Part shown: positions 7,130 to 57,984 of the stretch, in pieces
Layout: every line of letters begins with the position of its first letter
Position numbering within the stretch: position 1 is the stretch's first letter
NCBI GenBank assembly: GCA_963555825.3
Contig: CAUVXB020000002.1
Coordinates: 1,728,001-1,792,000, forward strand
Reading direction: 5' to 3'
Length of the DNA stretch: 64,000 nucleotides
From: Alphaproteobacteria bacterium
GTDB lineage: Bacteria > Pseudomonadota > Alphaproteobacteria > JAAXGF01
The notes under the pieces: generated by a model
Seen by the model: only the letters and a program-made list of their open reading frames with translations
Told to the model about the DNA's origin: nothing
Databases searched by the model: none
Made by a program: the position numbers and the translations under genes

Positions 7130-7470
7130 ACACTAACAGTAGAGCCCAGCAAAGGATTGACCTCTGCGGAAGACAAATCGAGCAGATAAACATGTTCGAT
7201 AGCCGATTGGCGGCAATGAAACACATCTTTGAGGTGGTCGACCCAACCAAGGAAACTGCTCTCATCGAATGGGCAGCAGATGAGATAATCGATCTACAAC
7301 CAGATGAAATGGAAAAAATATTCATTGATTATTTGTTGAGGCTTCAGAACGACTTAAAGATAGAATTTGGAGATTCGTTATATCATGTGCCTTTTGATTT
7401 CCTTCGCAAAAATAATTGGACTGACGATGAGTTCGAGGCGCGCGGGATTAAACCAATGCATTGGATCTAA
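7130..7470 (+). pseudogene. 3' fragment of the split exported protein
   Basis: Continues RY|NTNSRAQQRIDL...KPMHWI* in frame once the IS630 is removed. Confidence 0.7.
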
Positions 7471-7543
7471 TGTGCATCGACAACGTAGCGTTCAACCTGC
7501 CGAGAAATGTGCGCGCGAGCGATCGAGCAGAGGGAGACACGAG

Positions 7544-10500
7544 ATGACGACGACACGATTGGGAAACCAAGTTCCTCGTACGGCCGCACGGCCGATCCGC
7601 GCGTTCCTAGTGCTGCTCGGCGTTGTCGTTCTCCAATTGACGATCCCAGCCGCGGAAGAGGCTCACGCCCAGCAAGTCGTGCTCGACGAGAACTGCGTCA
7701 TCACGATCCTCAACCGCACCTCGCGGGTCAAGGAGGATGGCTCGTGGCGGGTCGACAACGTGCCGAGCAACTTCGGACCAACCCGCGCACGCGCCACCTG
7801 CATCGTCGACGGGCAGACCGTCTCGGGCGCGTCCGGCTTCTTCGTCATCCAGCCCAACCAGGGCAACGGCTTCGACGCCGACATCCCGCTCGGCGCGCCC
7901 GATCCGGTGCCCGCCAGCCTGACGATACCGCCGCTTGCCGGCGCGCTCGGCGGGGTCGGCGCGACGGCGCAGCTCGTCGTCACGGCGAACTTCACCGACG
8001 GCTCGACGGCCGACGTCGCGGCGGCGCTCGGCGTCTCGTACACGAGCACCAATCCGGCCATCGTCGCGGTCTCGGCGACCGGCGAGGTGACCGCGGTGAT
8101 GAGCGGCACGGCGGCGATCACCGCGCTGTTCGACGGCGCCGTCGGCATGGTGCTGGTCGGCGTCGTGCTGAGCGGCGATTCGGACGGCGACGGCATCCCC
8201 GACGACGTCGAGCTGGCGGCGGGCCTCAACCCCGACGACCCGCTCGACGGGCTCGAGGACCCGGACGGCGACGGCCTGACCAACAAGCAGGAGCTGGTCG
8301 ACTTCGGCACCGACTTCGAGGTTGCCGACACCGACGCCGACGGCATCGACGACGGCGAGGAGGTGGTCGCCGGGGCCGACGGCTTCGTCACCAACCCGCT
8401 GGCCGCCGATTCGGACGGCGACGGCATCGACGACGGCGAGGAGGTGGTTGCCGGCGCCGACGGTTTCATCACCGATCCGCTGGTCACCGATTCGGACGGC
8501 GACGGGCTGAGCGACGGCCTCGAGATCGCCACCGGCAGCGACCCGACCGACGCGCTGAGCTTCAACCTGGCCTCGGCGCTGCAGGAACTGACCATCGCGC
8601 CCGAGCTGTTCCGGATCGAGCTCGACCCGGATGGCGCAGACGTCTTTCAGCAGCTCACGGTGACCGGCGAGCTGATCGACGGCACGTTCATCGACGTCAC
8701 CGAGCCGATCCGCGGAACGGTCTACAGCCTGGCCGATCCGACGGCGTGCAGCTTCGGTTTCGAGCCGGGCCGCGTGTTCGGCGATTTGGCCGGGATTTGC
8801 GCCGTTACCGCCTCGATCGGCGGCTTTAGCGCCGAGGCGACCGGCACGGTGGTCGGCTTCACGCCGGGCGGCCTGGCCTCGATCAAGATTCCGGGCTTCG
8901 CCAACAACGTCGACGTCCAGGGCTCGCTCGCCTATGTCGCGGCCGGCGAGGCCGGCCTGCAAGTGGTCGACGTCAGCGTGCCGGGCGAACCGGTGATCGT
9001 CGGCGCCTTCGACACGCCGGGCAACGCCAACGACGTCAAGGCGGTGGGCACGCTCGCCTACATCGCCGACGGCTCGGCCGGCCTGCAGATCGTCGACGTC
9101 AGCGACCCGACGGCGCCGGTCGGCGTCGGGGCGGTCGACACGCCGGGCGACGCGCATGACCTCGCGGTATCGGGCGCCTTCGCCTATGTCGCCGACGGGA
9201 CACCCGTCGGAGGCGGCGCGTCGGGACTGAACATCATCGACATCAGCGTACCCGGCGCGCCGGCGATCGTCGGCACCTTCGGCTTCGCCGGCAGCGCCGA
9301 GGCGGTCGCCGTGACCGGCACTGTCGCCGCCGTGTTGGTTGGTGACCCGACCAAGGCACTCCAACTGATCGATGTCAGCGTGCCGGCGGCGCCCACGCTG
9401 GCCGGCTCGGCGGCGCTCGCCTTCACTGTGGTGAGATCGATCTTTACGCACGACGTGGAGATCGCCGGCGATCTCGCCTATCTCGTTGTCGGTGAGGGCG
9501 GCTTTGTCATCGTCGATATCCTCGACCCGACAGCGCCGGCGGTGGTCGCGACGACCTTCCAGCGGTTCACTCGTGACGTCGCCGTGGCGAACGATGTCGC
9601 TTTCATCATCAAATTTCGGGATCTCAGCAACATCTTTGGGCGTTTCATCCCGTTCGATGTGAGCGACCCGACGGCGCCGCTCGCGCAGACGCCCATCCAG
9701 ATTTCGACGTCGTTCACCGGCTATACCGGCACGGGCATTGTTACGGCCGGCAATTTCGCCTTCGTGTCGGCGCAATTTCTCGCATTCACCCGGAAGATCG
9801 GCGTGGATTGGTTCAGTCGCCTGTTCGTCGTTCAGCACAGCCCGTTCGACGACAGCGCCGGCGTGGCGCCGACCGCCAGCATCACGACGCCGACAGGCGC
9901 CGGCCCGATCGTCCAGGGACAGGACTTCGTGATCGAAGCCGCGGCGAGTGACGATGTGGCGGTCGCCTCGGTCGAGTTTCTGATCGATGGCGTGCCGGTC
10001 TTCGTCGATACCGCCGCGCCCTTCGAATTCGAGACGACCTTCCCCGAGGCCGCGCTTGATCTGGAAATCTCGGTGCGGGCGTATGACTACGCCAACACCC
10101 CTGGGAACACCGCTGTCGTCGTCGTGCCCGGCGCGCCCGATCTCTTCACGACGGTCGAGGGGACGGTCGTCGACGGCGACGGCTTCGCGGTCGAAGGGGC
10201 GGTCGTGAGCTGTCTCGGCGCCGAGGGGATCAGCGACGCGATCGGCGACTTCTCGGTCGTCGGCATTCCGACCACGAAGGGGCCATTCGCCTGCCACGTC
10301 GTCTTCGACCCGGTCGTGGATGCGCCGATCGACGGACAATCGATTACAATCGCGCCAATCCCCCTCGCGGTCTTCGATGTCGGGACGATCGAGCTGCGCT
10401 CGTGGACGCTCTTCGCCACCGCGCATGCCTTCGCTGGCCAGCCCAGCTCGCTCTACCAGATCGACAGCGAGACCGGCGCGGCGAGTCTCGTCGGCAATAT

Positions 10501-11140
10501 CGGGTTCAAATCCGTCAGCGGCATGGACTTCGATCCGATCGGCGAAACGCTGTATGCGACCGGCTTCCGCGACGTCAGCCCGTCCCGTGGCAACGAGGTC
10601 CTCTTCACGATCGACCAGAGCACCGGCGCCGGAACGGAAGTCGGATCGACGACCCTCGATCAATCCACAATCATCAACAAAGTCCCGGGCCTGACGTTCA
10701 GGGCCTCGGATGGCGTGCTCTATGCGTATGTCAGGCCCATCCAGGTCCTGATGACCATCGACATAGCGACGGGCGAGACCGATGTGGTTGACCGGACGAT
10801 CCCTTTCAGCACGGCAGGCAACGCCCTAACTTACTCGCCCGACGATACGCTGTATCTCATGTGGTCGGACTTCGTCACGACGAACCTTGCCACGCTCGAC
10901 CCGATCGACGGACGCCAGGTCGAGATCGGTCAGCTCTTCCTTCCGGTCGCGTCGGAGTTCGACACCCGCGTCTCGGCCGCCGACTATCATCCGCCGACCG
11001 GCCTGCTCTACGGCGTGCTGCGCGGCGTCTTCGTATTCGAAGACAGCTTCATCGTGACCATCGATACCGAGACGCGCGACGTGACCATCATCGGCCAATC
11101 CATCGATGGGCTCGACGCCCTGGCCTGGGTGCGCGACTGA
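7544..11140 (+). CDS. Large exported surface protein (1198 aa): Ig-like domains, DxDxDG calcium-binding repeats, LVIVD repeats, C-terminal beta-propeller-like region
   Basis: RBS AGGGAG before ATG 7544, signal peptide ending AHA-QQ, repeated DSDGDG, repeated [16 protein letters not shown] and [16 protein letters not shown]. Confidence 0.85.
8339..8500 (+). repeat. In-frame 81-bp tandem duplication (27-aa acidic repeat)
   Basis: [16 protein letters not shown](V/I)T(N/D)PL..DSDG occurs twice, starting at 8339 and 8420. Confidence 0.85.
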
Positions 11141-27543: not shown

Positions 27544-28548
27544 ATGACGATTACCCTGAGCCTCGCCGAGGTCGACACGCTGACGATGCGCGCGCTGACC
27601 GCGTGCAACACGCGCGAGGACAACGCGCGCTCGGTCACCGACTCGGTCGTCGCGTCCGAGGCCGACGGCATCCACAGCCACGGCCTGGCGCGCCTGCCGA
27701 CCTATTGCGCGCACGCCAGATGCGGCAAGATCGACGGCCAGGCGACGCCGCGTTGCGAACGTTCCGGCCCTGCCGCGCTCATGGTCGACGTCTGCGACGG
27801 CTTCGCCCATCCCGCCATCGAACTGGGCTTCGCCGATCTGGTGCCGCTCGCCAAGGAGACCGGCGTCGCCGCCATGGCGGTAACCAACTCGTACAACTGC
27901 GGCGTCGTCGGCTATCACGTCGAACGCCTCGCGAGCGACGGCCTGGTCGCGCTCGGTTACGTCAACGCGCCGGCCTCGATCGCGCCCTGGGGCGGCGCGA
28001 AACCGGTCTTCGGCACCAATCCGATCGCCTTCGCGGCGCCGCGCGGGGCGGGCCCGCCCTTGGTGATAGACCAATCGTCGAGCGTGGTGGCCAGGAGCGA
28101 GGTCATCGGCCACGCCCAGAACGGCGAGCCGATCCCCGAGGGCTGGGCGCTCGACGCGCACGGCCAGCCGACGACCGACGCATCCGCGGCGCTCGCCGGC
28201 TCGATGGTGCCGCTGGGCGGCTACAAGGGCGCCGGGCTGGCGCTGATCATGGAGGTCATGGCGGCGGCGATGACCGGCGCGAACTTCGCCTATCAGGCGT
28301 CGTCGTTCGCCGACAACGAGGGCGGCTCGCCGCGCACCGGGCAGTTCTTCATCGCGCTCGATCCCGGCCGCTTCGCCGGCCCCGGCTTCGGCGCCCGGCT
28401 CGACGAGCTGCTCACGCGAATGACCGCCGAGCCGGGCACCAGACTGCCCGGGGCGCGTCGCGTCGCCGCGCGCGAGCGCACGGCGCGGGACGGCGTCACG
28501 ATCAGAAAAACGTTGCATGACAAACTGTTAGCCTACGCCGAGGGCTGA
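27544..28548 (+). CDS. Ldh_2-family NAD(P)H oxidoreductase (DpkA/ComC/AllD-like)
   Basis: DGIHSHG, FGTNPIAFA, IPEGWALD..G.PTTD and GGYKG. Confidence 0.88.
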   Translation: MTITLSLAEVDTLTMRALTACNTREDNARSVTDSVVASEADGIHSHGLARLPTYCAHARCGKIDGQATPRCERSGPAALMVDVCDGFAHPAIELGFADLVPLAKETGVAAMAVTNSYNCGVVGYHVERLASDGLVALGYVNAPASIAPWGGAKPVFGTNPIAFAAPRGAGPPLVIDQSSSVVARSEVIGHAQNGEPIPEGWALDAHGQPTTDASAALAGSMVPLGGYKGAGLALIMEVMAAAMTGANFAYQASSFADNEGGSPRTGQFFIALDPGRFAGPGFGARLDELLTRMTAEPGTRLPGARRVAARERTARDGVTIRKTLHDKLLAYAEG

Positions 28549-28559
28549 TCGGACCGGTA

Positions 28560-29721
28560 ATACCAACGGCGCAAAATTCTGACTCGCAAGGGATTCCCTT
28601 TTTGGGCTGGATGTGATTCAAGGCTGGCGAAGGAGATTCGCCATGTCAGTATGCATTGCTCTTCGGGACGACTACGACAGCATTGAGCTCCGGTGTTTGG
28701 CCAAGCACAGTCGCGATCCCCGCCAAGTTCGCCGGCTTTTGGCCTTGGCGGCGGTTTACGACGGCATGAGCCGAGCGGAAGCCGCTAAGGTCGGCGGCAT
28801 GGATCGCCAGACGCTGAGAGACTGGGCGCACCGCTTCAACGATGAAGGGGCAGACGGCTTGAAGAACCGTCCCGGTGCGGGCCGCCCCCGGCTCTTGACC
28901 GACGAGCAGATGGGCGAACTGTCGGTGATCGTCGAAACGGGCCCCGATCCAGAGATTGACGGTGTGGTTCGCTGGCGGCGGGTTGACCTGAAACGGGTGA
29001 TCGAAGAACGCTTTGGCGTGATCTATAGCGAGCGGGCGATCTCCGACCTTCTCGTCGCGCTGTCCTTCTCCCACATCAGCGCCCGGCCGCAGCACCCCAA
29101 GCAGGACCAGCGGGTGATCGAGGCGTTCAAAAAAACTTCCCCCGCACGCTCGCTGCCCACCTAGCCGGTCTGCCCAAGACCAAGCGGGTCGAGATCTGGT
29201 TCCAAGACGAGGCCAGGCTGGGACAGAAGAACGGGCGTGTGCGCATTTGGGCGAAGAAGGGAACAAGGCCACGCCTGCCCGCCGATCAGCGCTACACGAA
29301 CGCCTACCTCTTTGGCGCAATCTGTCCCATGGGAGCCAAGGGTGCCGCTCTCATGCTCCCCTTCGCCAACACAGCCGCCATGCAGATGCATCTCGACGAG
29401 ATCAGCTGCAACGTCGCCGCCAAGGCCCATGGCGTCGTCCTGATGGACCGCGCCGGGTGGCACAGCACCGACCAGCTCAAGGTCCCCAAGAACCTCACCA
29501 TCATCCTGCTGCCATCGCGCTCGCCCGAGCTGAACCCGGTCGAGAACATCTGGCAATACCTCCGCCAGAATTGGCTCTCTAACCGCGTCTTCGAAGATTA
29601 CGACGCCATCATCGAGGCCGGTTGCCAAGCCTGGAACAAACTAATCGACCAGCCCGAGACGATCATGTCCATCGGAATGAGAGATTGGGCGATTTCAGGT
29701 CAATAATTAGTGCCGTTGGTA
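28560..29721 (+). mobile_element. IS630-family element, complete (OrfA 28643-29164, OrfB to 29706)
   Basis: TA duplication, IRs ATACCAACGGC / GCCGTTGGTA, A8 slippery run at 29129-29136, and WFQDEAR, DRAGWH, SPELNPVE motifs. Confidence 0.94.
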
Positions 29722-29832
29722 TAAGTTCGCGACATATCACCCGTTCGGATGATGACGGCTGCCGTGAGCCGCCCGATAATGGCCCGAGATTCAGCGTGGC
29801 GAAGGGCGCAACGCGGGCACGAGGGCTTGGCG

Positions 29833-30036
29833 ATGGATCAGACGGTCACGAAGATCAATCCGGCGCGGCGCTTGGCGCTGCACCCCGGCACCGGCGCGAG
29901 CAACATGATCCCGGACGATGTCTGGGCGGTCTTCGCGCGCTTCATGCTCGACCGCAAGACCGGCAACATCAAGCTCAACATCAAGGACGGCCGAATCCTC
30001 GGCTACCACGTCGAGGAAATCTGCAAGGTCAGATAA
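29833..30036 (+). CDS. Small protein (67 aa), DUF2292/YezD-like
   Basis: Good codon usage, RBS GAGGG and a TGNIKLNIKDGRILGYHVEE beta-hairpin pattern. Confidence 0.55.
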   Translation: MDQTVTKINPARRLALHPGTGASNMIPDDVWAVFARFMLDRKTGNIKLNIKDGRILGYHVEEICKVR

Positions 30037-30062
30037 CAGAAACGGACACGCGACGACGCGAG

Positions 30063-30088
30063 GCCCCGCTCCCCCGAGCGGGGCTTTT
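30063..30088 (+). terminator. Intrinsic terminator
   Basis: GCCCCGCTC-CCCC-GAGCGGGGC-TTTT. Confidence 0.8.
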
Positions 30089-30109
30089 CGATGCGGGCGG
30101 CATGACAAG

Positions 30110-30137
30110 AAAAGAGCGACCCCCGAAGGGGCCGCTC
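30110..30137 (-). terminator. Intrinsic terminator of the 469-aa gene
   Basis: rc GAGCGGCCCC-TTCG-GGGGTCGCTC-TTTT. Confidence 0.75.
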
Positions 30138-30170
30138 AGGGTCTCGAATTGTTACCCGACGTCTGCGTGA

Positions 30171-31580
30171 TTACAACGTTTCGTCATGGTCCGGATTGTC
30201 CTGCAGAGGCAGGGGATAGAACCGAACCTGGGCGTTGAACAGCTTGTCGGTATCGACGCCGAGCAGCAGGTTGACGAACTCCGACAGGTGGAAGATGAAC
30301 ACCGGGTCGTTGGTGAAGTCGCGGCACTCGGGCAGCTTCTCGCACAGCTCGGCGTCCGCTCCCGACAACGTATCGCCGACAGTGATCGTCTTGCAGGTCT
30401 CGGCGGTCTCGCAGATGCCGTCGCCGTCGTTATCGTCATCCTCCGCCGTCAGGTCCTCGACCTCGACCGAGAAGGAGACGCCCTCGACCAACGCCGGGCA
30501 GACGAATGCGGTATCGTCGTCGTTGATCTCACTCTTCTGGCAGAACGCGTAGCCGGTCGCGGTGGGAGTATCGTCGTCTGGGCAATCGTCGACCGCGACG
30601 ACCGTGCCGCCATCGTTGGTCGCACCCGCGCAGCACACGACGCGGTCGATCGGGGTGATGTCATCGGTCCCGTCGTTGTTGGTGTCGCCCGATGTGAAGT
30701 CAGCGCAGATGTTCTCGCAGGTCTCACCGCCGTCGCAGATGCCGTCCTCGTTGCCGTCGACGCCAGCCACCTCCTTGATGCAGAACAGGTCGATGTCGGC
30801 GTCGTTGATGAAGCAGATGCGGCCGTCGAAGTTGAACAGGTCCGAAATGTCGGTCGCCTTCTTGGCACCCTTGCCCGGCTTCGTCGTATCGAAGCGGTTG
30901 GCCGGCAGGCCCGCCGAGTCGAAGGTGCCTTCGCTGGTCAACAGTCCTAGCAGAACGAGGTCGTTGCCGAACTCATCCTCGACCAATTGGATGCCGCCCT
31001 CATCGACGAAGAAGTCTATGTCCGGTCCGCCGCCGTCGGCCGGCTTGCCGAGGACGCGCAGGAAGACCGCGTAGCCTTCGGAGTCCTTGGGCAGCAGGAC
31101 CTCGGCCGGGTCGCCGTCGCCGGTTCCGGGAAAGTCCGGAAACGCTTCGGCGCACCAGTCGGTGACCTGGAGCTCGGTCGCGCCGGGATTCTTCTTCGGC
31201 CCGCCGCGCCCGGACTGGATCAGGATCGAGACCGGCGCGTCGTTGTTAGTGGTATCGCGCTGGAAGTTGACCACGTTGCCGAAGAATTCGATGGTGGTCG
31301 CCTCGCAGGCATCGAGTTCCGGACAGGACTTCACGAGATCGCCGACCGTGTGAGAACCGTCAATGTCCGTGGTGATACGTTCGAAGAACTGCGGCGCCGG
31401 ACAGGCGAAATCGTCCTTCTTGCCGTGCAGGATGAGGTTGAAATGCGGGCCGCTCGGAAACCCGTTGCCGAGGTATTCCAAGACACCGTCGTTGTTCTTG
31501 ATTGGCTTGCCCGCGTTGCTGGTGCCGGCCCAAAGCGCCGTCGCGGTCACGAGCATCGCCGTGAGAAAGAATCTCTTCAA
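30171..31580 (-). CDS. Exported Cys- and Asp-rich hypothetical protein (469 aa)
   Basis: TTG start after AGGAGG, signal peptide MKRFFLTAMLV...SNA, many Cys and two DG(I)C..ETC motifs. Confidence 0.75.
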   Translation of the reverse strand: MKRFFLTAMLVTATALWAGTSNAGKPIKNNDGVLEYLGNGFPSGPHFNLILHGKKDDFACPAPQFFERITTDIDGSHTVGDLVKSCPELDACEATTIEFFGNVVNFQRDTTNNDAPVSILIQSGRGGPKKNPGATELQVTDWCAEAFPDFPGTGDGDPAEVLLPKDSEGYAVFLRVLGKPADGGGPDIDFFVDEGGIQLVEDEFGNDLVLLGLLTSEGTFDSAGLPANRFDTTKPGKGAKKATDISDLFNFDGRICFINDADIDLFCIKEVAGVDGNEDGICDGGETCENICADFTSGDTNNDGTDDITPIDRVVCCAGATNDGGTVVAVDDCPDDDTPTATGYAFCQKSEINDDDTAFVCPALVEGVSFSVEVEDLTAEDDDNDGDGICETAETCKTITVGDTLSGADAELCEKLPECRDFTNDPVFIFHLSEFVNLLLGVDTDKLFNAQVRFYPLPLQDNPDHDETL

Positions 31581-31789
31581 ATCGTGCCTCCTGTTGCGCG
31601 CGTCGTGTGGTTGCTGTTTTCTTGGTTGTTACGCCAACCTTGCATTCCCCAAACACGCGACACGCCGCTAGTGTCGCATAAATTCGTGGCAGTCTCCCGA
31701 CCAAACTCGGGGTTTTTCCCTGCCCGGCCAATCGGTTCCGGGGCGGGACCCAATGTTCGGTCGTGGCGCGGCCCACGTCACCGCCGAAT

Positions 31790-31889
31790 CAAAAAGAGCC
31801 CCGTTCCGAAGAACGAGGCTCGGTATATCCGATAACCTATTCGGTCATTTCAACAAACGAGCCTCCCAGACGTGATAGCCGAAGCTCAT
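31790..31889 (-). promoter_or_regulatory. Leader: 14-codon uORF (MSFGYHVWEARLLK), small hairpin and terminator
   Basis: ATG 31889 to TGA 31845, TCGG-ATATA-CCGA, then GAGCCTCGTTC-TTCG-GAACGGGGCTC-TTTTT. Confidence 0.55.
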
Positions 31890-31987
31890 TCTTTGTTGTA
31901 GATATCTGTCTCACAAAGCGGCCGTTTCGTCAAGGTAAACCGGCCTCGGCGAGCCTCGAAATAGGGCGGTGGCCGCCGGCAGCGGCG

Positions 31988-32953
31988 TCAGCTCTCGTCG
32001 GCGGGCGGCGGCGGTTCGGCCGGCCGGCCTTGGCGCCAGGCCAGGATCTCGAAGGGTCGCGCGCCACGCGGTGTCAGGCGCAAGACGGCCTCGCGCACGA
32101 AGACCGCGCCCCGGCCGCCGAGCGCCTCGACGCGGATCGTGACGACCCGGCCGCGCGAGCGCGCGACATAGCTCTTGAGGCCGACGATCGTCGTCGCGCC
32201 CTGGGTGGCGTCGTCCTCGGCGGCGGTCGCGCGGCTGTCGAGAAGGGTCTCGATGTCGGCATCGGTAATGCCGGGAATCGCGCTCAGCACCACCGCCGAT
32301 GCCTTCGACGGGTCGATCCGGCCGCCGCGCCCGGCGTGGACCGTCAGATGCGGCGCCGCCAGCTCGTAGAGCGCACGGGTCATGCCGAGCACCTGCTCGA
32401 GTTCGGCGACCGTCGCGAACGCCGCGTCCTTGGCCTCCCAGGCGAGCCCCGCGGCGCGGTAGTCGTCGTCTTCGGCGCCATCGGCGCGCGCGACGTCGTC
32501 GGCGTCGCGGAAGTCGGCGATGGCGTGGACTAGCAGGCGCGCATGCTCGGGCTCGGCGCCGAGCGCGAGGAACAGGCCCTCGACCATGTCGTCGGGCGCG
32601 CGGTTGAGATCGACCTTGCCGGCCTCGTCGAAAATGCTGATGGCGACCTCGCCGCCGCCGAAGGCCCACGGATAGAGCCGGCCGTCGCTCTGCCAGCGCG
32701 CCTCCGGGTCGCGGTCCAGCAGGCCGATGACGGCGCGGTAGACGCCGGCGTCGGCGAGCGCGCGCGCCTCGGCGTTGCCGAGCAGGTTGCGTGCGACCTG
32801 CGTCTCGACGGTGGTGTCGCGCAGGAACCCGGCGGCCATCACCGACAGCAGCACCAAGACCCACAGCACCGCGACCAGCGCAACGCCACGCGGTCGGGTG
32901 GCGGGTGGCGGCGTGGCGCTATTGCGTTTCGTCCGACCGCGGCTCGTCGTCAT
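31988..32953 (-). CDS. gspK: T2SS minor pseudopilin GspK
   Basis: RGVALVAVLWVL, DEAGKVDLN, IADFRDAD and ELEQVLGM. Confidence 0.88.
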   Translation of the reverse strand: MTTSRGRTKRNSATPPPATRPRGVALVAVLWVLVLLSVMAAGFLRDTTVETQVARNLLGNAEARALADAGVYRAVIGLLDRDPEARWQSDGRLYPWAFGGGEVAISIFDEAGKVDLNRAPDDMVEGLFLALGAEPEHARLLVHAIADFRDADDVARADGAEDDDYRAAGLAWEAKDAAFATVAELEQVLGMTRALYELAAPHLTVHAGRGGRIDPSKASAVVLSAIPGITDADIETLLDSRATAAEDDATQGATTIVGLKSYVARSRGRVVTIRVEALGGRGAVFVREAVLRLTPRGARPFEILAWRQGRPAEPPPPADES

Positions 32954-36714: not shown

Positions 36715-37185
36715 CTACCAGCTCACCAGGTCCTGGTCCTCGTCCTCGCCGCCCTCCTGACCGTCTGCGCCCAGCGAATAGATATCATAGTCGCCGTGCT
36801 CACCCGGGAACCGGTAAATGAAACGGTTGCCCCAGGGATCGTCGATCATCGCGCGCTTCTTGAGGTAGGGCCCGTTCCAACGCTCGGCGTCCGCCGGGCG
36901 CTCGAACAGCGCGTCCAGCCCCTGTTCCTCGGTCGGGTAACCGCCCGCGTCGAGGCGGTAGAGGTCGAGCGTGGCGCCGAGCTGCTGGACCTGGATCGCC
37001 GCGGTGTCCGACTTGGCGCCACCCAGATATTTGAGCACCTGCGGCACCGCGATCAGTGCGAGGAAGCTGAGGATTGCCAGCACGACCAGCAGCTCGAGCA
37101 GGGTGAAACCGCGCGACCGGCGGCGCGGGCGCCGGCCGGACGGCTGAACGACGGTGGCGGGTAGGGCCGCGGCGGAAACGATCAT
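36715..37185 (-). CDS. gspG: T2SS major pseudopilin GspG
   Basis: GFTLLELLVVL, YRLD.G.YP..EQGL, WNGPYL, DPWG and SLGADG. Confidence 0.95.
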   Translation of the reverse strand: MIVSAAALPATVVQPSGRRPRRRSRGFTLLELLVVLAILSFLALIAVPQVLKYLGGAKSDTAAIQVQQLGATLDLYRLDAGGYPTEEQGLDALFERPADAERWNGPYLKKRAMIDDPWGNRFIYRFPGEHGDYDIYSLGADGQEGGEDEDQDLVSW

Positions 37186-38224
37186 TACAAAGCCAGCTCG
37201 TTGACGCTGAGGAAGGCGACGAGAACCGAGCCTATGATAGCAGCAATCAACAATCCCAGGCCAATCGTCAACAATGGCACCAGAAGGCTCAGGAGTCGCT
37301 GGGTGGTCCGGCCGACCTCGCCGTCGAAGATGTCGGCGACCTTGGTGAGCATGGTCTCGAGTGCGCCGGTTTCCTCGCCGACGCGGACCAGCTGGACGGC
37401 GAGCGCGGGGAACGCGCCTGACGCCGCCATCGGCTCGGCCAGGCCCTTGCCCTCCTTGAGCCGGTCGGCGACGCCCTCGACCGCCGCGCCGATCACCGTG
37501 TTGCCCAGCGTGTCCTTGACGATGGTCAGCGCGCCCAACAGCGCGACGCCGTTGCCCAGCAGCGTGCCGAGCGTGCGCGCGAAACGCGCCACCTCGATCT
37601 TGCGGGTGAGGTCGCCGAACAACGGCAGACGCAGCATCATGCCGTCCCAGCGTCGCCGGAAGGCGGCATTGGCGAGCCGGCGGCGCACGAACAGGACCAG
37701 CGCGATGGCGACCAGCGCCATCAACCAGAACCAGCGCTCGAACACCTCGCCCACCGCGACCAGCACCCGCGTCGCGAGCGGCAGGGCCTCGCCGGCGTCA
37801 TCGAACAGTGGCTTGAACTCGGGGATCACCAGGGTCAGCAGGACGATGATAGAAAGCCCGGCCATGACCAGCAGGATCACCGGATAGATCAGCGCCGAGC
37901 GCACGCTGTCGGTCAGCGCCTGCGACTTCTCGAGGAAGCCGGCGAGCCGCGCGAGCACGACATCGAGCGTGCCGCCGGCCTCGCCGGCCCGCACCATCGA
38001 GACGTAGAAGTCGGGGAACGTGCCGTCCTGGTCCGCCATGGCGTCGGCCAGCGTCACGCCGCCACGCACGCCGTCGAGGACGCGCACCAGAAGCTTCGCG
38101 ACATTCTCCTTATCGGCCAGGCCGACCAGGATCTCGAGCGCGCGGTCGAGCGGCAGGCCGGCGCCGAGCATGGTGGCGAGCTCGCCGGTGACCAGCGCGA
38201 CGACGCGGCGCGATACCTTGCGGT
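37185..38224 (-). pseudogene. gspF: T2SS inner-membrane protein GspF, 5'-truncated
   Basis: AGLPL.RAL, AGEAGG.L, SALIYP and VGEETG. The N-terminus is replaced by an IS end at 38225. Confidence 0.88.
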
Positions 38225-38742
38225 GGGTGCGAGTCTCGCATGGCAGTGATGTCTGCGGCTTGGTTCGTTGAGTTCAGGCAGCGATTGCCATGGCTGCTGC
38301 ACGTGGACTGATGTTGTCGTTGGCCGGTGTGTCGGTTGCGCTGATCAGGGCCTTCCATGCCCGCTCGAAGCGGCCGGATTTGATCAGGGCGCGGAAGGTC
38401 AGAACAGCCTGTCCGCCGACGATCCGCCAGCGCATGCCGGAGCGCTTCATGCGCTGTGTCACCAGGGTCTTGTTGGCAGCTTCGACCACGCCTGAGCCGA
38501 TGGCGATGCCCTCTTCCTTCAGGGCGTGGTAGCGCATGCGATGGCGATGCTTGCGGAAGAAGGCGAGTTCCCGCTCGGTCTCGGCCCGGTCCGGCGCAGC
38601 GGCGGCATCGCGAAGGTGGCGCAGCGCCCGGATCACCTTGGCGACGCCACGGGGATCGTGACGGAGGATCTCGCGGTACTTCTCGAACCAGCCGGGCGCC
38701 ACGGCATGGTCGGACGCGGTTTGCAGATGTTCGCAAGCATGC
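38225..38742 (-). mobile_element. ISKra4/ISLre2-like remnant (3' part of transposase)
   Basis: RMRY..L...G..IGSGVVEAANK.LV.QRMKRSGMRW. Cut by IS21. Confidence 0.8.
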
Positions 38743-38933
38743 TGTCAATGGCGGAGCAAAAAGGGACCACCTCGGCGGTGTAAGAAGGGACCGCTTGGCG
38801 GCTGCGGGCTTGTCCCCGTAGTCCACGGGAGGGCCCCGCGCGCGACGCGGCGTGCCCTCAACAGGCTGACGCGGCGGCGCGCGCGGGAGGGACCTGTGGG
38901 CCCACGGGGTCAAGCGTGGGCTGGGTGGTCGGT

Positions 38934-39698
38934 TCAGTTAGCAGTCGGGGTTTGACGCCTGCGGCTCTGGTTGAGCCTGTAGCTGTCACCGTTCATCTCG
39001 AGGATGTTGACGTGGTGGGTGAGGCGATCGAGGAGCGCGCCGGTGAGGCGCTCGGAGCCGAACACCTCGGTCCATTCGTCGAAGGGCAGATTGGTGGTGA
39101 CCAGGGTCGAGCCCCGCTCGTAGCGTTGGCTGAACACCTCGAACAACAGCTCGGCGCCGGTCTTCGACAGCGGCACGAAGCCGAGTTCGTCGACGATCAG
39201 AAGCTTGTAGGTGGCGAGCTTCTTCTGGAACCTCAGCAGCTGCTTGTCATCGCGGGCCTCGATGAGTTCGTGGACCAGCGCGGCGGCGGTGATGAAGCCG
39301 ACCGAGAGGCCCTTCTGGCAGGCCGCCAGGCCGAGACCGAGGGCGATGTGGGTCTTGCCGGTCCCACTGTTGCCGAGCGCGATGAGGTTCTCGCGGCGCT
39401 CGATGTACTCGCAGCGGGCCAGCTCCAGGACCAGCGCCTTGTTGAGCGAGGGGATGACCTTGAAGTCGAAGCTGTCGAGGCTCTTGACCACGGGGAAGCG
39501 CGCCGCCTTGATGCGCCGCTCGACCATGCGGCGCTCGCGGTCGATCAGCTCGAGCTCGGCGAGTCTCAACAGGTAGCGGACGTGATCGACGCCTTCCGAG
39601 GCGCACTGCCGGGCGATCTTGTCGTACTCGCGCAGGAAGGTCGGCAGCTTCAGCGTCTTGAGGTGGTGGGCGAGCAGCACTTGCGGTGTGTCGGTCAT
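38934..39698 (-). CDS. istB: IS21 helper ATPase IstB
   Basis: GNSGTGKT, LLIVDELG, TTNLPF.EW and ALLDRL.HH. Confidence 0.94.
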   Translation of the reverse strand: MTDTPQVLLAHHLKTLKLPTFLREYDKIARQCASEGVDHVRYLLRLAELELIDRERRMVERRIKAARFPVVKSLDSFDFKVIPSLNKALVLELARCEYIERRENLIALGNSGTGKTHIALGLGLAACQKGLSVGFITAAALVHELIEARDDKQLLRFQKKLATYKLLIVDELGFVPLSKTGAELLFEVFSQRYERGSTLVTTNLPFDEWTEVFGSERLTGALLDRLTHHVNILEMNGDSYRLNQSRRRQTPTAN

Positions 39699-41194
39699 GC
39701 GCCGAGCCCCGACAGCAGGCTCATGTACGACTTGGCGGACGTCATCGCGACCCGGGCGCGCGGCAGATACGGATAGACGTCGAGGTTGAGCCTGGGCGGC
39801 CGCCGCTCGATGCGGCACAGTACCAGGTGCTTCACCGCATCAAAGCCGATTGCGCCGAGCCTGAGCGCGTCGCCGACCGCACCCTCGACCTCCTCGAGCC
39901 GGAAGGTCTCCAGTAGACGGAGCACCTGGACGTACTCGCGCTTGCCTGCCTTGCCCATACGAGCTTCGAGGAGCCGCCGCAGAGTGATGAAGGCCTCGGG
40001 CAGGTCCCAGCCCGCCAATGGCGCGGCCTGGTCGAGGGCGCCGATCTTCTGCTCGATCAAGGGCAGGTAATGCAGCGGGTCGAAGATCAGGTCCTCGCTG
40101 TCGTAGGACCGGCGGTGCCGGGCGATCACCTCGGCCCCGCAGCTGATCACCACCTCATCGACGTAGCCCCGGATGAGCACCTCACGGTGGCCGTAGGCCA
40201 CGGGCACGGAATAGTCGTTGCTGCGGTAACGCACCAGCGACAGCGAACTCGCCCGTCCAGGGCGCTTATCGCAGGCATCATAGGGAGCAGGCGGCAATGG
40301 CAAGAGAACTTGACGATCCCGCTCGAGACGCTCGCCGATGGTCTCCTTGTGGCCCCGCAGCCGCGCCGCCTGGCGCCGGCGGCACTGTTCGGCGAGAGCA
40401 TCGTTGAGGGCCGCGAAGCTCTCGGCACGCGGGACGGGGACCAGGAAGTTCCGCCGGATGAAGCCGACCAGTCCCTCGACCTTGCCCTTGTCGTTGCCCT
40501 TGCCCGGCCGGCCGAACCTGTCCTCGAACAGATAGTGGGACTGAAGCTCCGTGAAGACGCGCGTTCGCTGCCGCTTCCCATCGCCCAGGATCCGGGCAAC
40601 CGCCAGCTTGGTGTTGTCGTACAGGATGGATCGGGGGACGCCGCCGAAGAAGGCAAACGCCGCGTTGTGGCCATCGCAGAATGCTTCGGTCGTCTCCGCC
40701 GGATAGGCCGCAACAAAGCAACCATCACTGTGGGGAAGGTCGAAGGCAAGGAAGTGGATCTTCCGTAACGCGCCGCCGATCACCGCCATCGCTTCGCCGA
40801 AGTCCGCCTGGGCGTGACCGGGGGAATGGGAGAGTGGCACGAACACCTCACGCGACCGAAGCCCCTGCTCACGAACGTAGTCCTTCACGATGGTGTAGCC
40901 GCCCGTGAAACCGTACTCGTCCCGGAGGCGGTCGAAGATGCGCTTCGCAGTGTGCCGTTGCTTGCGGTGGCTGGTCCGATCGTCTTCCAAGATCCGATCG
41001 ATGATTCCCGTGAACGGACCCAGCTTTGGCCGCCTCGGCGGCGCGCTTCGGCGATACCCTGGCGGCACCGAGAACGACAGCATCTTACGGACCGTCTTGC
41101 GGTCTACACCAAACACCCGCGAGGCCTCGCGGGTGCTCATCCCCTCGACATGACACGCCCGCCGAACCCGTGCGTACAACTCCACCCGATACAT
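39695..41194 (-). CDS. istA: IS21 transposase IstA
   Basis: AQADFG, FGGVP..ILYDN, KGKVE and NDYSVP. Confidence 0.94.
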   Translation of the reverse strand: MYRVELYARVRRACHVEGMSTREASRVFGVDRKTVRKMLSFSVPPGYRRSAPPRRPKLGPFTGIIDRILEDDRTSHRKQRHTAKRIFDRLRDEYGFTGGYTIVKDYVREQGLRSREVFVPLSHSPGHAQADFGEAMAVIGGALRKIHFLAFDLPHSDGCFVAAYPAETTEAFCDGHNAAFAFFGGVPRSILYDNTKLAVARILGDGKRQRTRVFTELQSHYLFEDRFGRPGKGNDKGKVEGLVGFIRRNFLVPVPRAESFAALNDALAEQCRRRQAARLRGHKETIGERLERDRQVLLPLPPAPYDACDKRPGRASSLSLVRYRSNDYSVPVAYGHREVLIRGYVDEVVISCGAEVIARHRRSYDSEDLIFDPLHYLPLIEQKIGALDQAAPLAGWDLPEAFITLRRLLEARMGKAGKREYVQVLRLLETFRLEEVEGAVGDALRLGAIGFDAVKHLVLCRIERRPPRLNLDVYPYLPRARVAMTSAKSYMSLLSGLGA

Positions 41195-41312
41195 CCCCCC
41201 CGCCTTCCAGTCAGAGCAACCCTGACAGAAGGCTATACGCGGTCCCATTTTGGTCCGCCGCAGCCGGATCGACCGGCCGCTTCAGTGGGGGATTATTGCT
41301 CTGCCGTTCTCA

Positions 41313-41705
41313 TGCATCGGGGCGACAGGTTCCCACGTTCCACACAAGAGCCTGAACCAAGGTAACGCCGCCTTTATGCCGGACGCCATCTGGGCAGTAA
41401 GCAGGCTATCTCCCAGACTTCTCCCGGGCTAACGAAACCCACCCGGTTTTGACGACTTCTTTGCACTTTTCGACACGTCATCAGCGGTTCGCTTGCGCTC
41501 GTCTCCTTGGACCTCACCTGACCGGATATCGTCCAACCTTTTCCTCAACGCTCACCACCATCGCTCTTTACGACAGCAGCTTGAGGCGGTTTGAAGCCTG
41601 CTCCTGCAAGCCGACTTCGAGGGGCCATACCCTCATCTCCTGTGCAGCATGGCTGCTTAGGACTTGCCTAACTCATGGCTCCTCCTTCGCGCCTTCGTGG
41701 CGCAC
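41313..41705 (-). ncRNA. Group II intron, 5' fragment (domain I region; RmInt1-like class), RT ORF lost
   Basis: 5' end GTGCGCCACGAAGGCGCG. EBS1 TTTCGT (41432-37) and EBS2 AAGTGC (41463-68) match the 5' exon. Confidence 0.85.
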
Positions 41706-42795: not shown

Positions 42796-42871
42796 TGGTG
42801 GAGCCGAGGGGAATCGAACCCCTGACCTCGACATTGCGAACGTCGCGCTCTCCCAACTGAGCTACGGCCCC
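42796..42871 (-). tRNA. tRNA-Ala(CGC)
   Basis: GGGGCCGTAGCTCAGTTGGGAGAGCG...TTCGCAA...GGTTCGATTCCCCTCGGCTCCACCA, 76 nt, G3:U70 pair. Confidence 0.97.
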
Positions 42872-48008: not shown

Positions 48009-48194
48009 CCAGCCCGCGCCAATCTTGATTCCAACAAGAGGGCGGGCCGCCGACCGTTCGGACAATCCTTGTGGGATAAAGAATGGCCTTGTGGGATCAA
48101 GAATGGCCTTGTGGGATCAAGATTGGCCTTGTGGGATAAAGATTGGCCTTGTGGGATAAAGATTGGCATGCGCGGCGACTGAGCGCAGGTCACC
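48009..48194 (-). repeat. Modular intergenic repeat with five tandem 20-bp units
   Basis: (CCTTGTGGGATMAAGAWTGG)x5 at 48067-48166. Flanks are shared with the copies at 49345, 57756 and 62763. Confidence 0.9.
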
Positions 48195-49344: not shown

Positions 49345-49477
49345 TTTGGTTTCCGGCCACCTTCGGTGACCTGCGCTCAATCGTCGCGCAGGCCAACCTT
49401 ATGGGATAAAGGCCGGCCGAACGGTCGGCGGCCCCCCCCCCCCCCCTCTTGTTGGAAATAGGATTGGCGCGGGCTGG
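49345..49477 (+). repeat. Modular intergenic repeat copy (one degenerate 20-bp unit, poly-C tract)
   Basis: GGTGACCTGCGCTCAATCG...CCGAACGGTCGGCGGCC...CTCTTGTTGGAA...GATTGGCGCGGGCTGG. Confidence 0.8.
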
Positions 49478-51154: not shown

Positions 51155-51364
51155 CTAGGCGACCTGGATCCTGCGCACGCCGACGAATTCCGACTCGAGC
51201 GCCGGCTCACCGTCCTCCAGAAGCATCTCGATGACCTCCTGGAGGTTGCGCTCGACCTCGTTCAGATCGGCGCCCTGGGTGTGCGCGCCGGGCCAGCCGG
51301 GCACATAGCCGACGTAGACCCCGGTGTCCGCATCCCGCTCTACGACAAAGTCGAACGTTCGCAT
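51155..51364 (-). CDS. hicB: Short HicB-family antitoxin (69 aa)
   Basis: MRTFDFVVERD..TG.YVGYVPGWPGAHTQG..L.E...NL.EVIEMLL. RBS GGAGG. Confidence 0.85.
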   Translation of the reverse strand: MRTFDFVVERDADTGVYVGYVPGWPGAHTQGADLNEVERNLQEVIEMLLEDGEPALESEFVGVRRIQVA

Positions 51365-51465
51365 GCGCCTCGTGCCTCCGGTTCCGTCTCGAAGAGAGAC
51401 TATCGCCCCGAGGACCGCCGGTCCAGTCGGCCTAGCGATGATCGGATGACCCGCGTCGATCATCC

Positions 51466-51595
51466 GATCGACCGCCTCGAGCCGGGCGATCGCGGTCTCG
51501 AGCAGCTCGCCCGCCGTCGTCTCGCCCTCGCGCACCAAATGCGCCAGCCCAACGGCGTCGTAGCGGTCGTAATCGTCGAATGTGGTCATGTGGCG
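51466..51595 (-). repeat. Diverged duplicate of the amidase 5' end
   Basis: 130 bp matching 50822-50951 with about 8 mismatches. Confidence 0.9.
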
Positions 51596-51809
51596 GGCTC
51601 CCTGCCGATTGCCTCTGATGGAGAATCTCGGTCGGCCGATACCCTATCTCAGTCGCAAGGAGGCGCAAGGTTGGAGGTTGGAGGGGTGCCATGTGCTATG
51701 CGCAGGGGCCGCGCCAGCACGCGTCGACGTACGTTCTAGCTTAAAACGGAATCTCAACGTCCAGTTCAGGCGTCGATACTGCCGCCGATTCGCGGCGCTT
51801 CAACCGGCT

Positions 51810-52553
51810 TTACAAACCCCGAAGGAACCGAATCGACGCCGACACATGGTTGAAGATCAGGAGTGCCTCATCGTAGTTAAGAAGCACGTTGTCGTGAGCG
51901 AGGCTTTGATTGTTCCGCACATGATTAAAGGCCTCCAAAGTCGAAATGCTCGACTTGAGGATACGATCAGTCATCCCGGACTCGATGTGATCGCCCCGCC
52001 GGAGATGCTTGACATACTCTCCGAACAGACTGTGCAGTGGCTTGTCACGGTTGACGGTGATGCCCCGCGGCTCACATAGCGACCGAACGAACATCGTGAC
52101 GAAGGTGTGCAGGCGGTCAAGGCCGGCTTCCGGTTCGTTCTTTTCTATCGCCTCACGGACCGCCTTAGCGACGATCTCGAAATTCGGCTCGTCGGCGGTC
52201 ACTGTCAAAGCGTCTAGTTCAGATACAGTACTGGTCTCGGAGAGGCGTGACACAATTTTCTGGCAGTCATCGACCAATGACGAATCACGCAGCAAACCCT
52301 CGCTTTGCCCGCAGTCGATAAGCTCTCCGATCAGCTTGGCGACCAAAGGATTGGCCTCTTCGTTCCAAAATGCTCGCAACCTGTTAGCCTTCGATCCGCT
52401 CCCATAGTCGTATTTCTCATCGTAGATACCGCGCCCTGTGGTATCGAGGACAAATTCTTCGAAAGTCCGATTAGAAAATTCGAGCACATACCCTGAGCCC
52501 ATCCCGAAAAGGCGCTCAAGCTTTCGCTTCTCCATCGCTTTTAGATCAGACAT
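51810..52553 (-). CDS. AbiJ-like abortive-infection protein (C-terminal HEPN/Abi_C)
   Basis: LF.M.SGYVL.FSNRTF..F N-terminus and RNNQSLAH near the C-terminus. Lower GC. Confidence 0.75.
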   Translation of the reverse strand: MSDLKAMEKRKLERLFGMGSGYVLEFSNRTFEEFVLDTTGRGIYDEKYDYGSGSKANRLRAFWNEEANPLVAKLIGELIDCGQSEGLLRDSSLVDDCQKIVSRLSETSTVSELDALTVTADEPNFEIVAKAVREAIEKNEPEAGLDRLHTFVTMFVRSLCEPRGITVNRDKPLHSLFGEYVKHLRRGDHIESGMTDRILKSSISTLEAFNHVRNNQSLAHDNVLLNYDEALLIFNHVSASIRFLRGL

Positions 52554-57755: not shown

Positions 57756-57984
57756 CGGTCACCTAAAGGTGACCTGCGCTCAATCGCCGCGCATGCCATT
57801 CTTGATCCCACAAGGCCATTCTTGATCCCACAAGGCCATTCTTGATCCCACAAGGCCATTCTTGATCCCACAAGGCCATTCTTGGCCATTCTTGATCCCA
57901 CAAGGCCATTCGATCGATGATCCCACAAGGATTCTTGATCCCACAGTGCCATCGGCCTTGATCCCACAAAGCCATTCTTGATCC
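57756..57984 (+). repeat. Modular repeat with a 20-bp tandem array (five perfect units, one half unit, degenerate units)
   Basis: GCCATTCTTGATCCCACAAG units from 57795, after GGTGACCTGCGCTCAATCGCCGCGCATG. Confidence 0.9.

Follow-up and report, generated by a model that had tools for sequence, protein, structure and literature searches.

In the BglG, SacY and LicT systems the RAT hairpin is stabilised by its ligand protein, and ANTAR sites, read by proteins such as EutV, NasR and AmiR, have two 3-bp stems with hexaloops bearing A1 and G4. Leader-peptide attenuators such as those of trp and his combine mutually exclusive 1:2, 2:3 and 3:4 helices with a short open reading frame (ORF). In the parts of the literature covered here, the nearest biological parallel to the locus described below appears to be the Q-like capsid control of the Bartonella gene transfer agent (BaGTA), whose regulator BrrG, a Q21-like processive factor, binds near the promoter (10.1101/2024.11.20.624540). 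We analysed a 64-kb stretch of an alphaproteobacterial chromosome (the window) that carries two related elements, copy A (29833-30088, + strand) and copy B (31790-31889, − strand), in each of which a small-protein gene or its remnant is followed by an intrinsic terminator. The best explanation overall is that a conditional terminator of a phage was captured by the chromosome, a reading to which we give a probability of about 0.5. The two cases would be alike in that a terminator gates capsid genes and that phage regulatory parts were domesticated in an alphaproteobacterium; they differ in that the candidate factor here has a 45-residue core and its site lies at the terminator itself. The same parts of the literature, including those of PMC7921472 and PMC5737381, contain no description of the unit, although the supplements of RNA-motif surveys, which lie outside that scope, could hold a related motif.

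Copies A and B lie convergently around a gene for a probably secreted protein, and much of what an earlier note on this DNA had described stands. Both carry the same 14-mer (at 31869-31882, − strand, in B), both read it as GYHV.E and reach a stop codon after seven further codons, and in both a 4-bp hairpin follows the motif after 36 nt and leads to a terminator with a U-tract. Copy B leads the secreted-protein gene downstream of gspK, and no gene lies behind the terminator of copy A on the same strand. Compared without gaps, the 36-nt spacers have 17 of their 36 positions in common (shuffle p 0.0026). Of the 351 pairs among the 27 hairpin-plus-U candidates in the window, that of the two terminators scores best, while upstream of the motif the similarity of A and B is not significant (p 0.39). 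The note had also described stems that differ in sequence yet keep their pairing, and this did not hold up: the 5' arms of the terminator stems are alike in sequence (7 of 9 positions identical), and the difference between the A and B hairpins is not clean covariation because the mini-hairpin of A is out of register. Nor is the 14-mer, correctly placed at both elements, limited to them; it has four exact copies in the window rather than two (27908, 29999, 31869 and 33438). All four are inside 5.5 kb and on the sense strand, each at the apex of a predicted hairpin with a 6-nt loop, a clustering that is unique among the 12 dispersed 14-mer families of the window and was reproduced in 1 of 80 Markov simulations. 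Since the copies at 27908 and 33438 fall inside unrelated genes (an Ldh_2-family gene and a long gene between gspM and gspK, respectively), the 14-mer alone is weak evidence.

The complete gene of copy A encodes a 67-aa protein with 24 matches, 23 of them intact at 60-99% identity (the close relatives) and one frameshifted. A wider search gave 170 representatives at E≤0.001, and 136 of the 149 newly listed are small proteins (the distant relatives); the whole family set holds 237 sequences, with tight clades of 32, 25 (including the window protein) and 19 members and 127 singletons at 75% core identity. When species-representative genomes were scanned for the DNA of close relatives, using a pattern that fits all 23 close relatives and 12 of the 136 distant ones, 7 stretches were returned and none was confirmed. 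A looser second pattern returned 21 loci, three of which are family members: L008 in a Nitrospinota metagenome-assembled genome (MAG), L014 in a Rhodospirillales MAG and L016 on an alphaproteobacterial MAG chromosome. The other 18 are unrelated and were used as controls. Because this pattern covers 63 of the 136 distant relatives, the three loci are not a census.

All three outside copies sit in phage head modules, after the portal gene and before the capsid genes, and the link to secreted-protein or type II secretion system (T2SS) genes that had been proposed for the element is not seen in them. In L016 the order runs from terminase and portal through a 133-aa gene, the small gene and the element to a probable scaffold gene, two further genes and the major head gene. 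L014 shares the first four of these genes and then reaches the contig end. In L008 the small gene comes after a portal-like fragment (recognised by eye), and the element, short genes and a probable scaffold gene separate it from the major head gene. The scaffold label in L008 and L016 is read from position and composition, and the three modules may be prophages or co-binned phage contigs. At each locus the element's terminator is the strongest on the coding strand and lies mid-operon, and a scan for sigma-70-like promoters found none ahead of the gene that follows; in L008 the ORF of that gene begins ~15 nt past the U-tract. Read-through therefore seems required. Four distantly related phage records found via the portal contain neither a family gene nor the element, and the L016 junction DNA is unmatched in the phage and plasmid collections. 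A second conserved motif lies 3' of the terminator and before the probable scaffold gene in L016 (5860-5900, −) and L014 (1-35, −; p 0.0007); it has no Rfam match and is a possible translational operator. Homology of copy B to the phage scaffold leader 3' of the terminator was considered and rejected, the two being alike by eye but with p 0.42 and 0.49.

A covariance model trained on the three outside copies alone (R1) scored B at 39.0 bits and A at 32.4 bits in the 64 kb, with the next best match at 6.8 bits, and gave no further match at E≤0.05 in 26 sources. For the post-stop, non-coding part (R2), B scored 30.4 bits (E 4e-8) and A 7.8 bits (E 4.8), and the best unrelated terminator among 8 non-training loci reached 19.7 bits; the E-values of both models are rough. 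The earlier note's suspicion of a repeated unit is thus borne out by three outside instances, but one of its own two examples, copy A, lacks the RNA signature. Over the 25 nt after the stop codon B is identical to L014 at 17 positions (0/20000 shuffles), to L016 at 13 and to L008 at 11, and the phage copies share 11-14 positions among themselves. Copy A matches the others at 7-9 positions, which is the chance level, and has neither a stop-codon hairpin nor an intact alternative helix.

Only copy A has the complete small gene (family hidden Markov model (HMM), E 1e-25). The same model gives B 1.1 bits, and the front of the gene is gone. The 14-aa upstream ORF of the earlier note is present as a short frame; it is, though, the tail of a second small-protein gene, with 8 of 11 residues identical to the tails of P0011, P0022, P0023 and P0144, versus 5 of 11 for A. 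Copy A has kept the protein and lost the RNA signature, and copy B has lost the protein and kept the RNA, so that the decayed duplicate which the note had allowed for is decayed as a gene and intact as RNA. The portal-to-scaffold or capsid location of the phage unit is absent here: the neighbours are an insertion sequence (IS), the Ldh_2-family gene, the secreted-protein gene and gspK, and no phage structural gene was found among the 44 window ORFs scanned in Pfam and the 26 scanned in PHROGs. In the phage and plasmid collections the DNA of copy B has three short GC-rich matches only. Judged by sequence, A and B very probably share descent from a phage head-operon unit. That they are instead a chance product, a 14-mer dictated by GYHV codons beside ordinary GC-rich terminators, is hardly credible. 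The 14-mer does occur in two unrelated nearby genes, and the longest exact match of copy B (17 nt) is to one of them; chance, however, has no account of R1 matching only A and B, of R2 matching B, of the spacer similarity and the top-ranked terminator pair, or of the 17 of 25 identities between B and L014, all outside the 14-mer. The sites at 27908 and 33438 are unmatched by the covariance model from the outside copies and unexplained by homology; they are probably codon-driven.

The conserved RNA sits 3' of the stop codon, not at the GYHV 14-mer. As a functional or conserved RNA signal the 14-mer was rejected: it tracks the GYHV codons, occurs in the two unrelated genes and is missing from two of the three phage copies (present in one), and GYHV.E is found in 4 of the 136 distant relatives. 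The stop codon and the terminator's first GCC are 26 nt apart in A, L016 and L008 and 25 nt apart in B and L014. Within this interval B and the three phage copies share one layout, consisting of R-GG-Y, two unpaired bases, the hairpin P2 (4 bp, 5-nt loop) and the terminator. P2 is paired in 16 of 16 cells over these four copies. The R-GG-Y strand can pair back over the stop codon (hairpin P1, whose rule is passed by B, L016 and L008 and not by L014) or forward with the first four bases of the terminator, a helix paired in 15 of 16 cells and always with a 2-nt bulge, in four of the five copies. Taken as mutually exclusive helices, 1:2, 2:3 and 3:4 are all present in B, L016 and L008; L014 has 2:3, and A fails. 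The layout arises in shuffled sequences at a frequency of 0.003-0.017 per copy (a post hoc figure), and an exact-register descriptor made from the four copies matches only those four in 627 kb. In the fitted alignment 92% of cells are paired, with six two-sided pairs, against 38-52% in slid controls; the 92% is optimistic because the alignment was fitted to the model. Rfam has no family at the window locus, where the best score was 24.6 bits against a 45-bit threshold and fell on the other terminator, and none in L008, L014 or L016 at E≤1.

Two tiny tandem hairpins directly before an intrinsic terminator recall ANTAR sites. Here, however, the loops are of 3-5 nt with no A1/G4 hexaloop, no ANTAR domain is present, and P2 abuts the terminator rather than overlapping it. 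The exclusive helices tied to a short ORF likewise recall leader-peptide attenuators, from which the unit differs in that it has no regulatory codon run, the product of its ORF is a protein that is conserved and folds, the 2:3 form is not competitive in energy, and it stands mid-operon rather than in a 5' leader.

In size and in its helix-strand-turn-strand pattern the small-protein family is like the DUF2292 (YezD-type, PF10055) family, to which the earlier note had likened the 67-aa protein. An HMM comparison leaves DUF2292 as a distant lead only: the 67-aa and a 95-aa ORF are unmatched at E≤10 (gathering threshold 22 bits), and 1 of the 136 distant relatives passes the gathering score, with 6 of 136 at E≤0.1. 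The parts of the literature naming DUF2292 that were covered (including PMC7921472) mention neither an RNA element downstream nor a role in phages. For the 67-aa protein there is no match in Pfam, NCBIfam or PHROG and none among PDB sequences, and precomputed Pfam annotation was present on 0 of 120 among the small-protein matches listed. Its nearest Atlas clusters are mostly viral (score 0.85), and a cluster with 25% DUF2292 members scored 0.81, both of which are leads only. The phage and plasmid collections gave no match for the small protein or P0258; for P0254 one search gave weak matches (E 3-8) and another none. The AlphaFold2 model has one helix and two strands (alpha-beta-beta, pLDDT 77). 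Fold searches, for which the 67-aa model with 45 confident residues was used, gave no significant match (Foldseek PDB best E 0.68, BFVD best E 0.17), and the best hit of the VIA fold search was a MinE-like alpha-beta-beta fold at Z 2.7. The protein is predicted to form a homodimer via its first strand, with a score of 0.67 against 0.00 for the best of three controls; 20 of 30 solved homodimers reach that mark, as does 1 of 23 single chains, and the runs agreed in at least 97% of contacts with pLDDT of at least 85. Near-invariant T, N, N and K residues lie on the interface strand, and this face of the modelled dimer may be the one that binds RNA. Many relatives have longer C-tails. The P0165 and P0175 clades (32 and 19 members) carry long terminal extensions and may be further host-captured lineages. 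P0018, with an intact core, and the frameshifted P0024 share a longest contig of 315,211 nt, possibly reflecting a single genome with two copies or a sequencing error.

We propose that the ancestral unit comprised the gene for the alpha-beta-beta protein, two tiny hairpins within 25-26 nt, the terminator, and then the scaffold and capsid genes. In the OFF state the GG strand would pair back on the stop-codon strand (P1) and the terminator would form. In the ON state it would pair forward with the terminator's first four bases, extending P2 to a bulged hairpin and detaching the terminator stem from its U-tract. Ribosome traffic over the stop codon would free the GG strand. On its own the ON form is too weak and would have to be held by a bound factor, for which the small homodimer encoded just upstream would be the most economical candidate. 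Such a switch would delay scaffold and capsid in the phage until the portal module has been translated. On the chromosome, A would supply the protein and end in a plain terminator, and B would keep the switch between gspK and the secreted gene, where it would at least terminate the incoming transcript and possibly gate the secreted gene. It is close to a coin's toss that the terminator is conditional in the phage. The small protein is a tentative choice of ligand, backed by less than an even chance, and it is doubtful that the A protein acts on B in this bacterium and controls the secreted gene. Equally speculative is the fullest version, that the unnamed family consists of site-specific homodimeric RNA antiterminators, that each of them recognises a bulged hairpin lying 25 nt past the stop codon of its own gene and so serves phages as a self-timed portal/capsid checkpoint, and that the system is split here into A and its trans target B, which would gate the secreted protein where the type II secretion cluster ends.

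The proposal is like the BglG/SacY/LicT systems in that a small, beta-rich dimer would stabilise a weak bulged hairpin overlapping the 5' arm of a terminator. It differs from them in that the window protein has no CAT or PRD domain (Pfam, NCBIfam) and an alpha-beta-beta fold, no more than four terminator bases would be sequestered, the gene lies directly 5' of its own site, and the binding is proposed only. Of an attenuator such as the earlier note had in mind, two features stand, a mid-operon position in the three phage copies and the alternative helix in B and the three phage copies; an easier antitermination than in shuffled sequence does not.

Several points weigh against a captured switch. 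There are five copies only, three of them from MAG contigs; covariation was counted on a structure-fitted alignment, and the layout descriptor was derived from the same copies. The P1 rule holds in 3 of the 4 intact copies, and in the forward helix, with just one two-sided change, the GG/CC core never varies and could be acting as a sequence signal instead of a helix. With the stop-codon strand blocked the ON fold still lies 3.5-9.6 kcal/mol behind the terminator, and complete antitermination comes no more easily than with shuffled upstream sequence (p 0.32, 0.42). A long-range antiterminator formed via the motif hairpin was tried in partial folds and rejected as no better than 300 shuffles. 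That the small protein binds RNA is conjecture. The search for relatives of the secreted protein found none above 48% identity, against 23 close relatives of the small protein, so that the pairing of A with the secreted gene may not be conserved. Promoters were scanned for sigma-70 alone. Finally, in an IS-rich region where gspF has lost its N-terminus, B may be a relic whose one remaining function is to terminate.

This last possibility is the most serious rival, although we consider it less likely than a captured switch. A and B would be phage-type leftovers, with B persisting, or still awaiting decay, only as a constitutive terminator by which the gsp transcript is ended or insulated. The secreted gene would have its own unrecognised promoter in the 209 nt before it, and the small protein would have a role unrelated to B. 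The coding remnant of B is indeed truncated and has atypical W and A residues, the gsp operon is cut, the terminator is thermodynamically ahead in every state, and a terminator ~170 nt after gspK is ordinary. Yet the post-stop RNA of B is as near the phage copies (11-17 of 25) as they are to one another (11-14 of 25), P1, P2, the bulge and the forward helix are intact while the reading frame has decayed, and the sigma-70-like scan found no promoter 3' of the B terminator.

An attenuator coupled to translation, with no protein ligand, is unlikely. Here translation to the stop codon, or stalling just before it, would melt P1 and let the forward helix form; the peptide would not be the effector, and the 14-codon ORF of B would be the functional minimum. 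P1 overlaps the stop codon, the stop-to-terminator distance is 25-26 nt in all five copies, and the frame of B is open with its stop in register. When the stop-codon strand is blocked, the ON penalty falls in B (from 11.8 to 8.4 kcal/mol), L016 (from 9.6 to 3.5) and L014 (from 8.4 to 5.6) but rises in L008 (from 7.5 to 9.6). A ribosome at the stop codon would also cover the GG strand at +7 to +10, which counts against this scheme. The mini-ORF product MSFGYHVWEARLLK contains no run of regulatory codons, its start codon is sequestered inside a predicted long hairpin with no clear Shine-Dalgarno sequence, the protein fold and dimer interface are conserved beyond what a leader peptide needs, and the longer C-tails of many relatives do not suit one.

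Less likely still is a separate, Q-like processive antiterminator gate, or a stability or processing structure or short RNA, to which the small protein is merely adjacent. Copy B would then act in the window as a closed gate, or as a small RNA of ~90 nt transcribed from the weak promoter at 31916. For the Bartonella gene transfer agent, Q-like antitermination has been described at the capsid operons (10.1101/2024.11.20.624540), and the candidate promoter would start the transcript at ~31882, the 5' edge of the A/B homology. A processive factor, however, could do without a conserved bulged helix that overlaps the base of the terminator, the promoter matches at only 8/12 positions, and no Rfam match was found.

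Positions of the features discussed are collected in Table 1.

Table 1. Features at and around copies A and B (window coordinates).
Feature	Position	Strand	Basis
IS630-type element between the Ldh_2-family gene and copy A	28560..29722	+	HTH and DDE_3 matches, matching ends
Sigma-70-like promoter candidate of the small gene	29752..29780	+	9/12 consensus matches only
Copy A small-protein gene, complete, 67 aa	29833..30036	+	relatives, predicted fold
Copy A 14-mer, codes (L)GYHV, apex of local hairpin, 6-nt loop	29999..30012	+	sequence search, folding
Copy A mini-hairpin, out of register with phage-type P2	30049..30060	+	register comparison
Copy A intrinsic terminator, first GCC 26 nt past stop codon	30061..30088	+	terminator scan
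Terminator of the secreted-protein gene, convergent with that of A, not a unit member	30106..30137	−	6.0 and 9.7 bits with two covariance models
Gene of the probably secreted protein, 469 aa, downstream of copy B	30171..31580	−	119 homologs
Stretch from terminator B to the start codon, 209 nt	31581..31789	−	no sigma-70-like promoter found
Shine-Dalgarno of the secreted gene, strong	31592-31587	−	sequence
Copy B intrinsic terminator, 11 bp and U-tract, first GCC 25 nt past stop codon	31790..31821	−	terminator scan
Copy B hairpin P2, 4 bp, 5-nt loop, abuts terminator	31820..31832	−	in register to the base with the three phage copies
Copy B hairpin P1 at the stop codon	31832..31848	−	folding
Copy B R-GG-Y strand (3' strand of P1)	31838-31835	−	alternative pairing to the terminator's first four bases, 2-nt bulge
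Copy B 14-codon mini-ORF	31845..31889	−	C-terminal remnant of a second small-protein gene
Weak promoter candidate before copy B	31888..31916	−	8/12, below standard scan threshold
gspK, last gene of gspF-G-H-I-J-L-M-(?)-K, transcript would run into copy B	31988..32953	−	Pfam T2SSK_1st

The protein between the two copies is acidic (90 D+E) with 18 Cys, and an N-terminal hydrophobic helix, typical by eye of a signal peptide, suggests that it is probably secreted. Its best non-self matches are 40-48% identical. The predicted model (pLDDT 76) has a beta-sandwich-like core; fold searches gave no significant match (best Z 5.0, a generic beta-sandwich), the Atlas was blank, no Pfam or PDB match was found, and the protein is unmatched in the phage and plasmid collections. 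Its family, which has no name, comprises at least 119 clusters, among them proteins of Vibrio, Litoribrevibacter and Pseudoalteromonas; many Cys residues and an N-terminal motif are conserved across it.

On the other side of copy B, gspF is without its N-terminus and stands beside an IS-like ORF and IS21 (istA/istB) at 37185-41250, and a search of the window for gspE and gspF motifs gave no match. It looks as if the T2SS cluster has been cut at the 5' end, close to where a group II intron fragment (41516-41634) and a tRNA-Ala gene (42796-42871) lie. Elsewhere in the window, a 1257-aa protein at 7367-11137, in the same IS-rich region, has LVIVD, TSP3 and Ig-like repeats and is likely secreted or at the surface. 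Two related 20-bp tandem arrays on opposite strands (48067-48167, 5 copies; 57795-57984, ~10 copies) each lie beside a dispersed repeat that recurs at 49365, 52898 and 62783, possibly a MITE or iteron-like element. A low-GC segment at 51158-52553 holds a HicB-like fragment and an Abi_C-domain gene.

The locus ties an RNA element with no Rfam entry to a protein family of 237 sequences with no Pfam, NCBIfam or PHROG entry, and the two occur together in the head operons of phages that are uncultured and whose contigs were assigned to two phyla. A switch of this kind, if real, would be a mechanism ordering portal before capsid synthesis, would be among the smallest protein-RNA antiterminators known, and would give a first functional handle on DUF2292-like proteins. 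It would also be a case of a host re-using a phage regulatory device.

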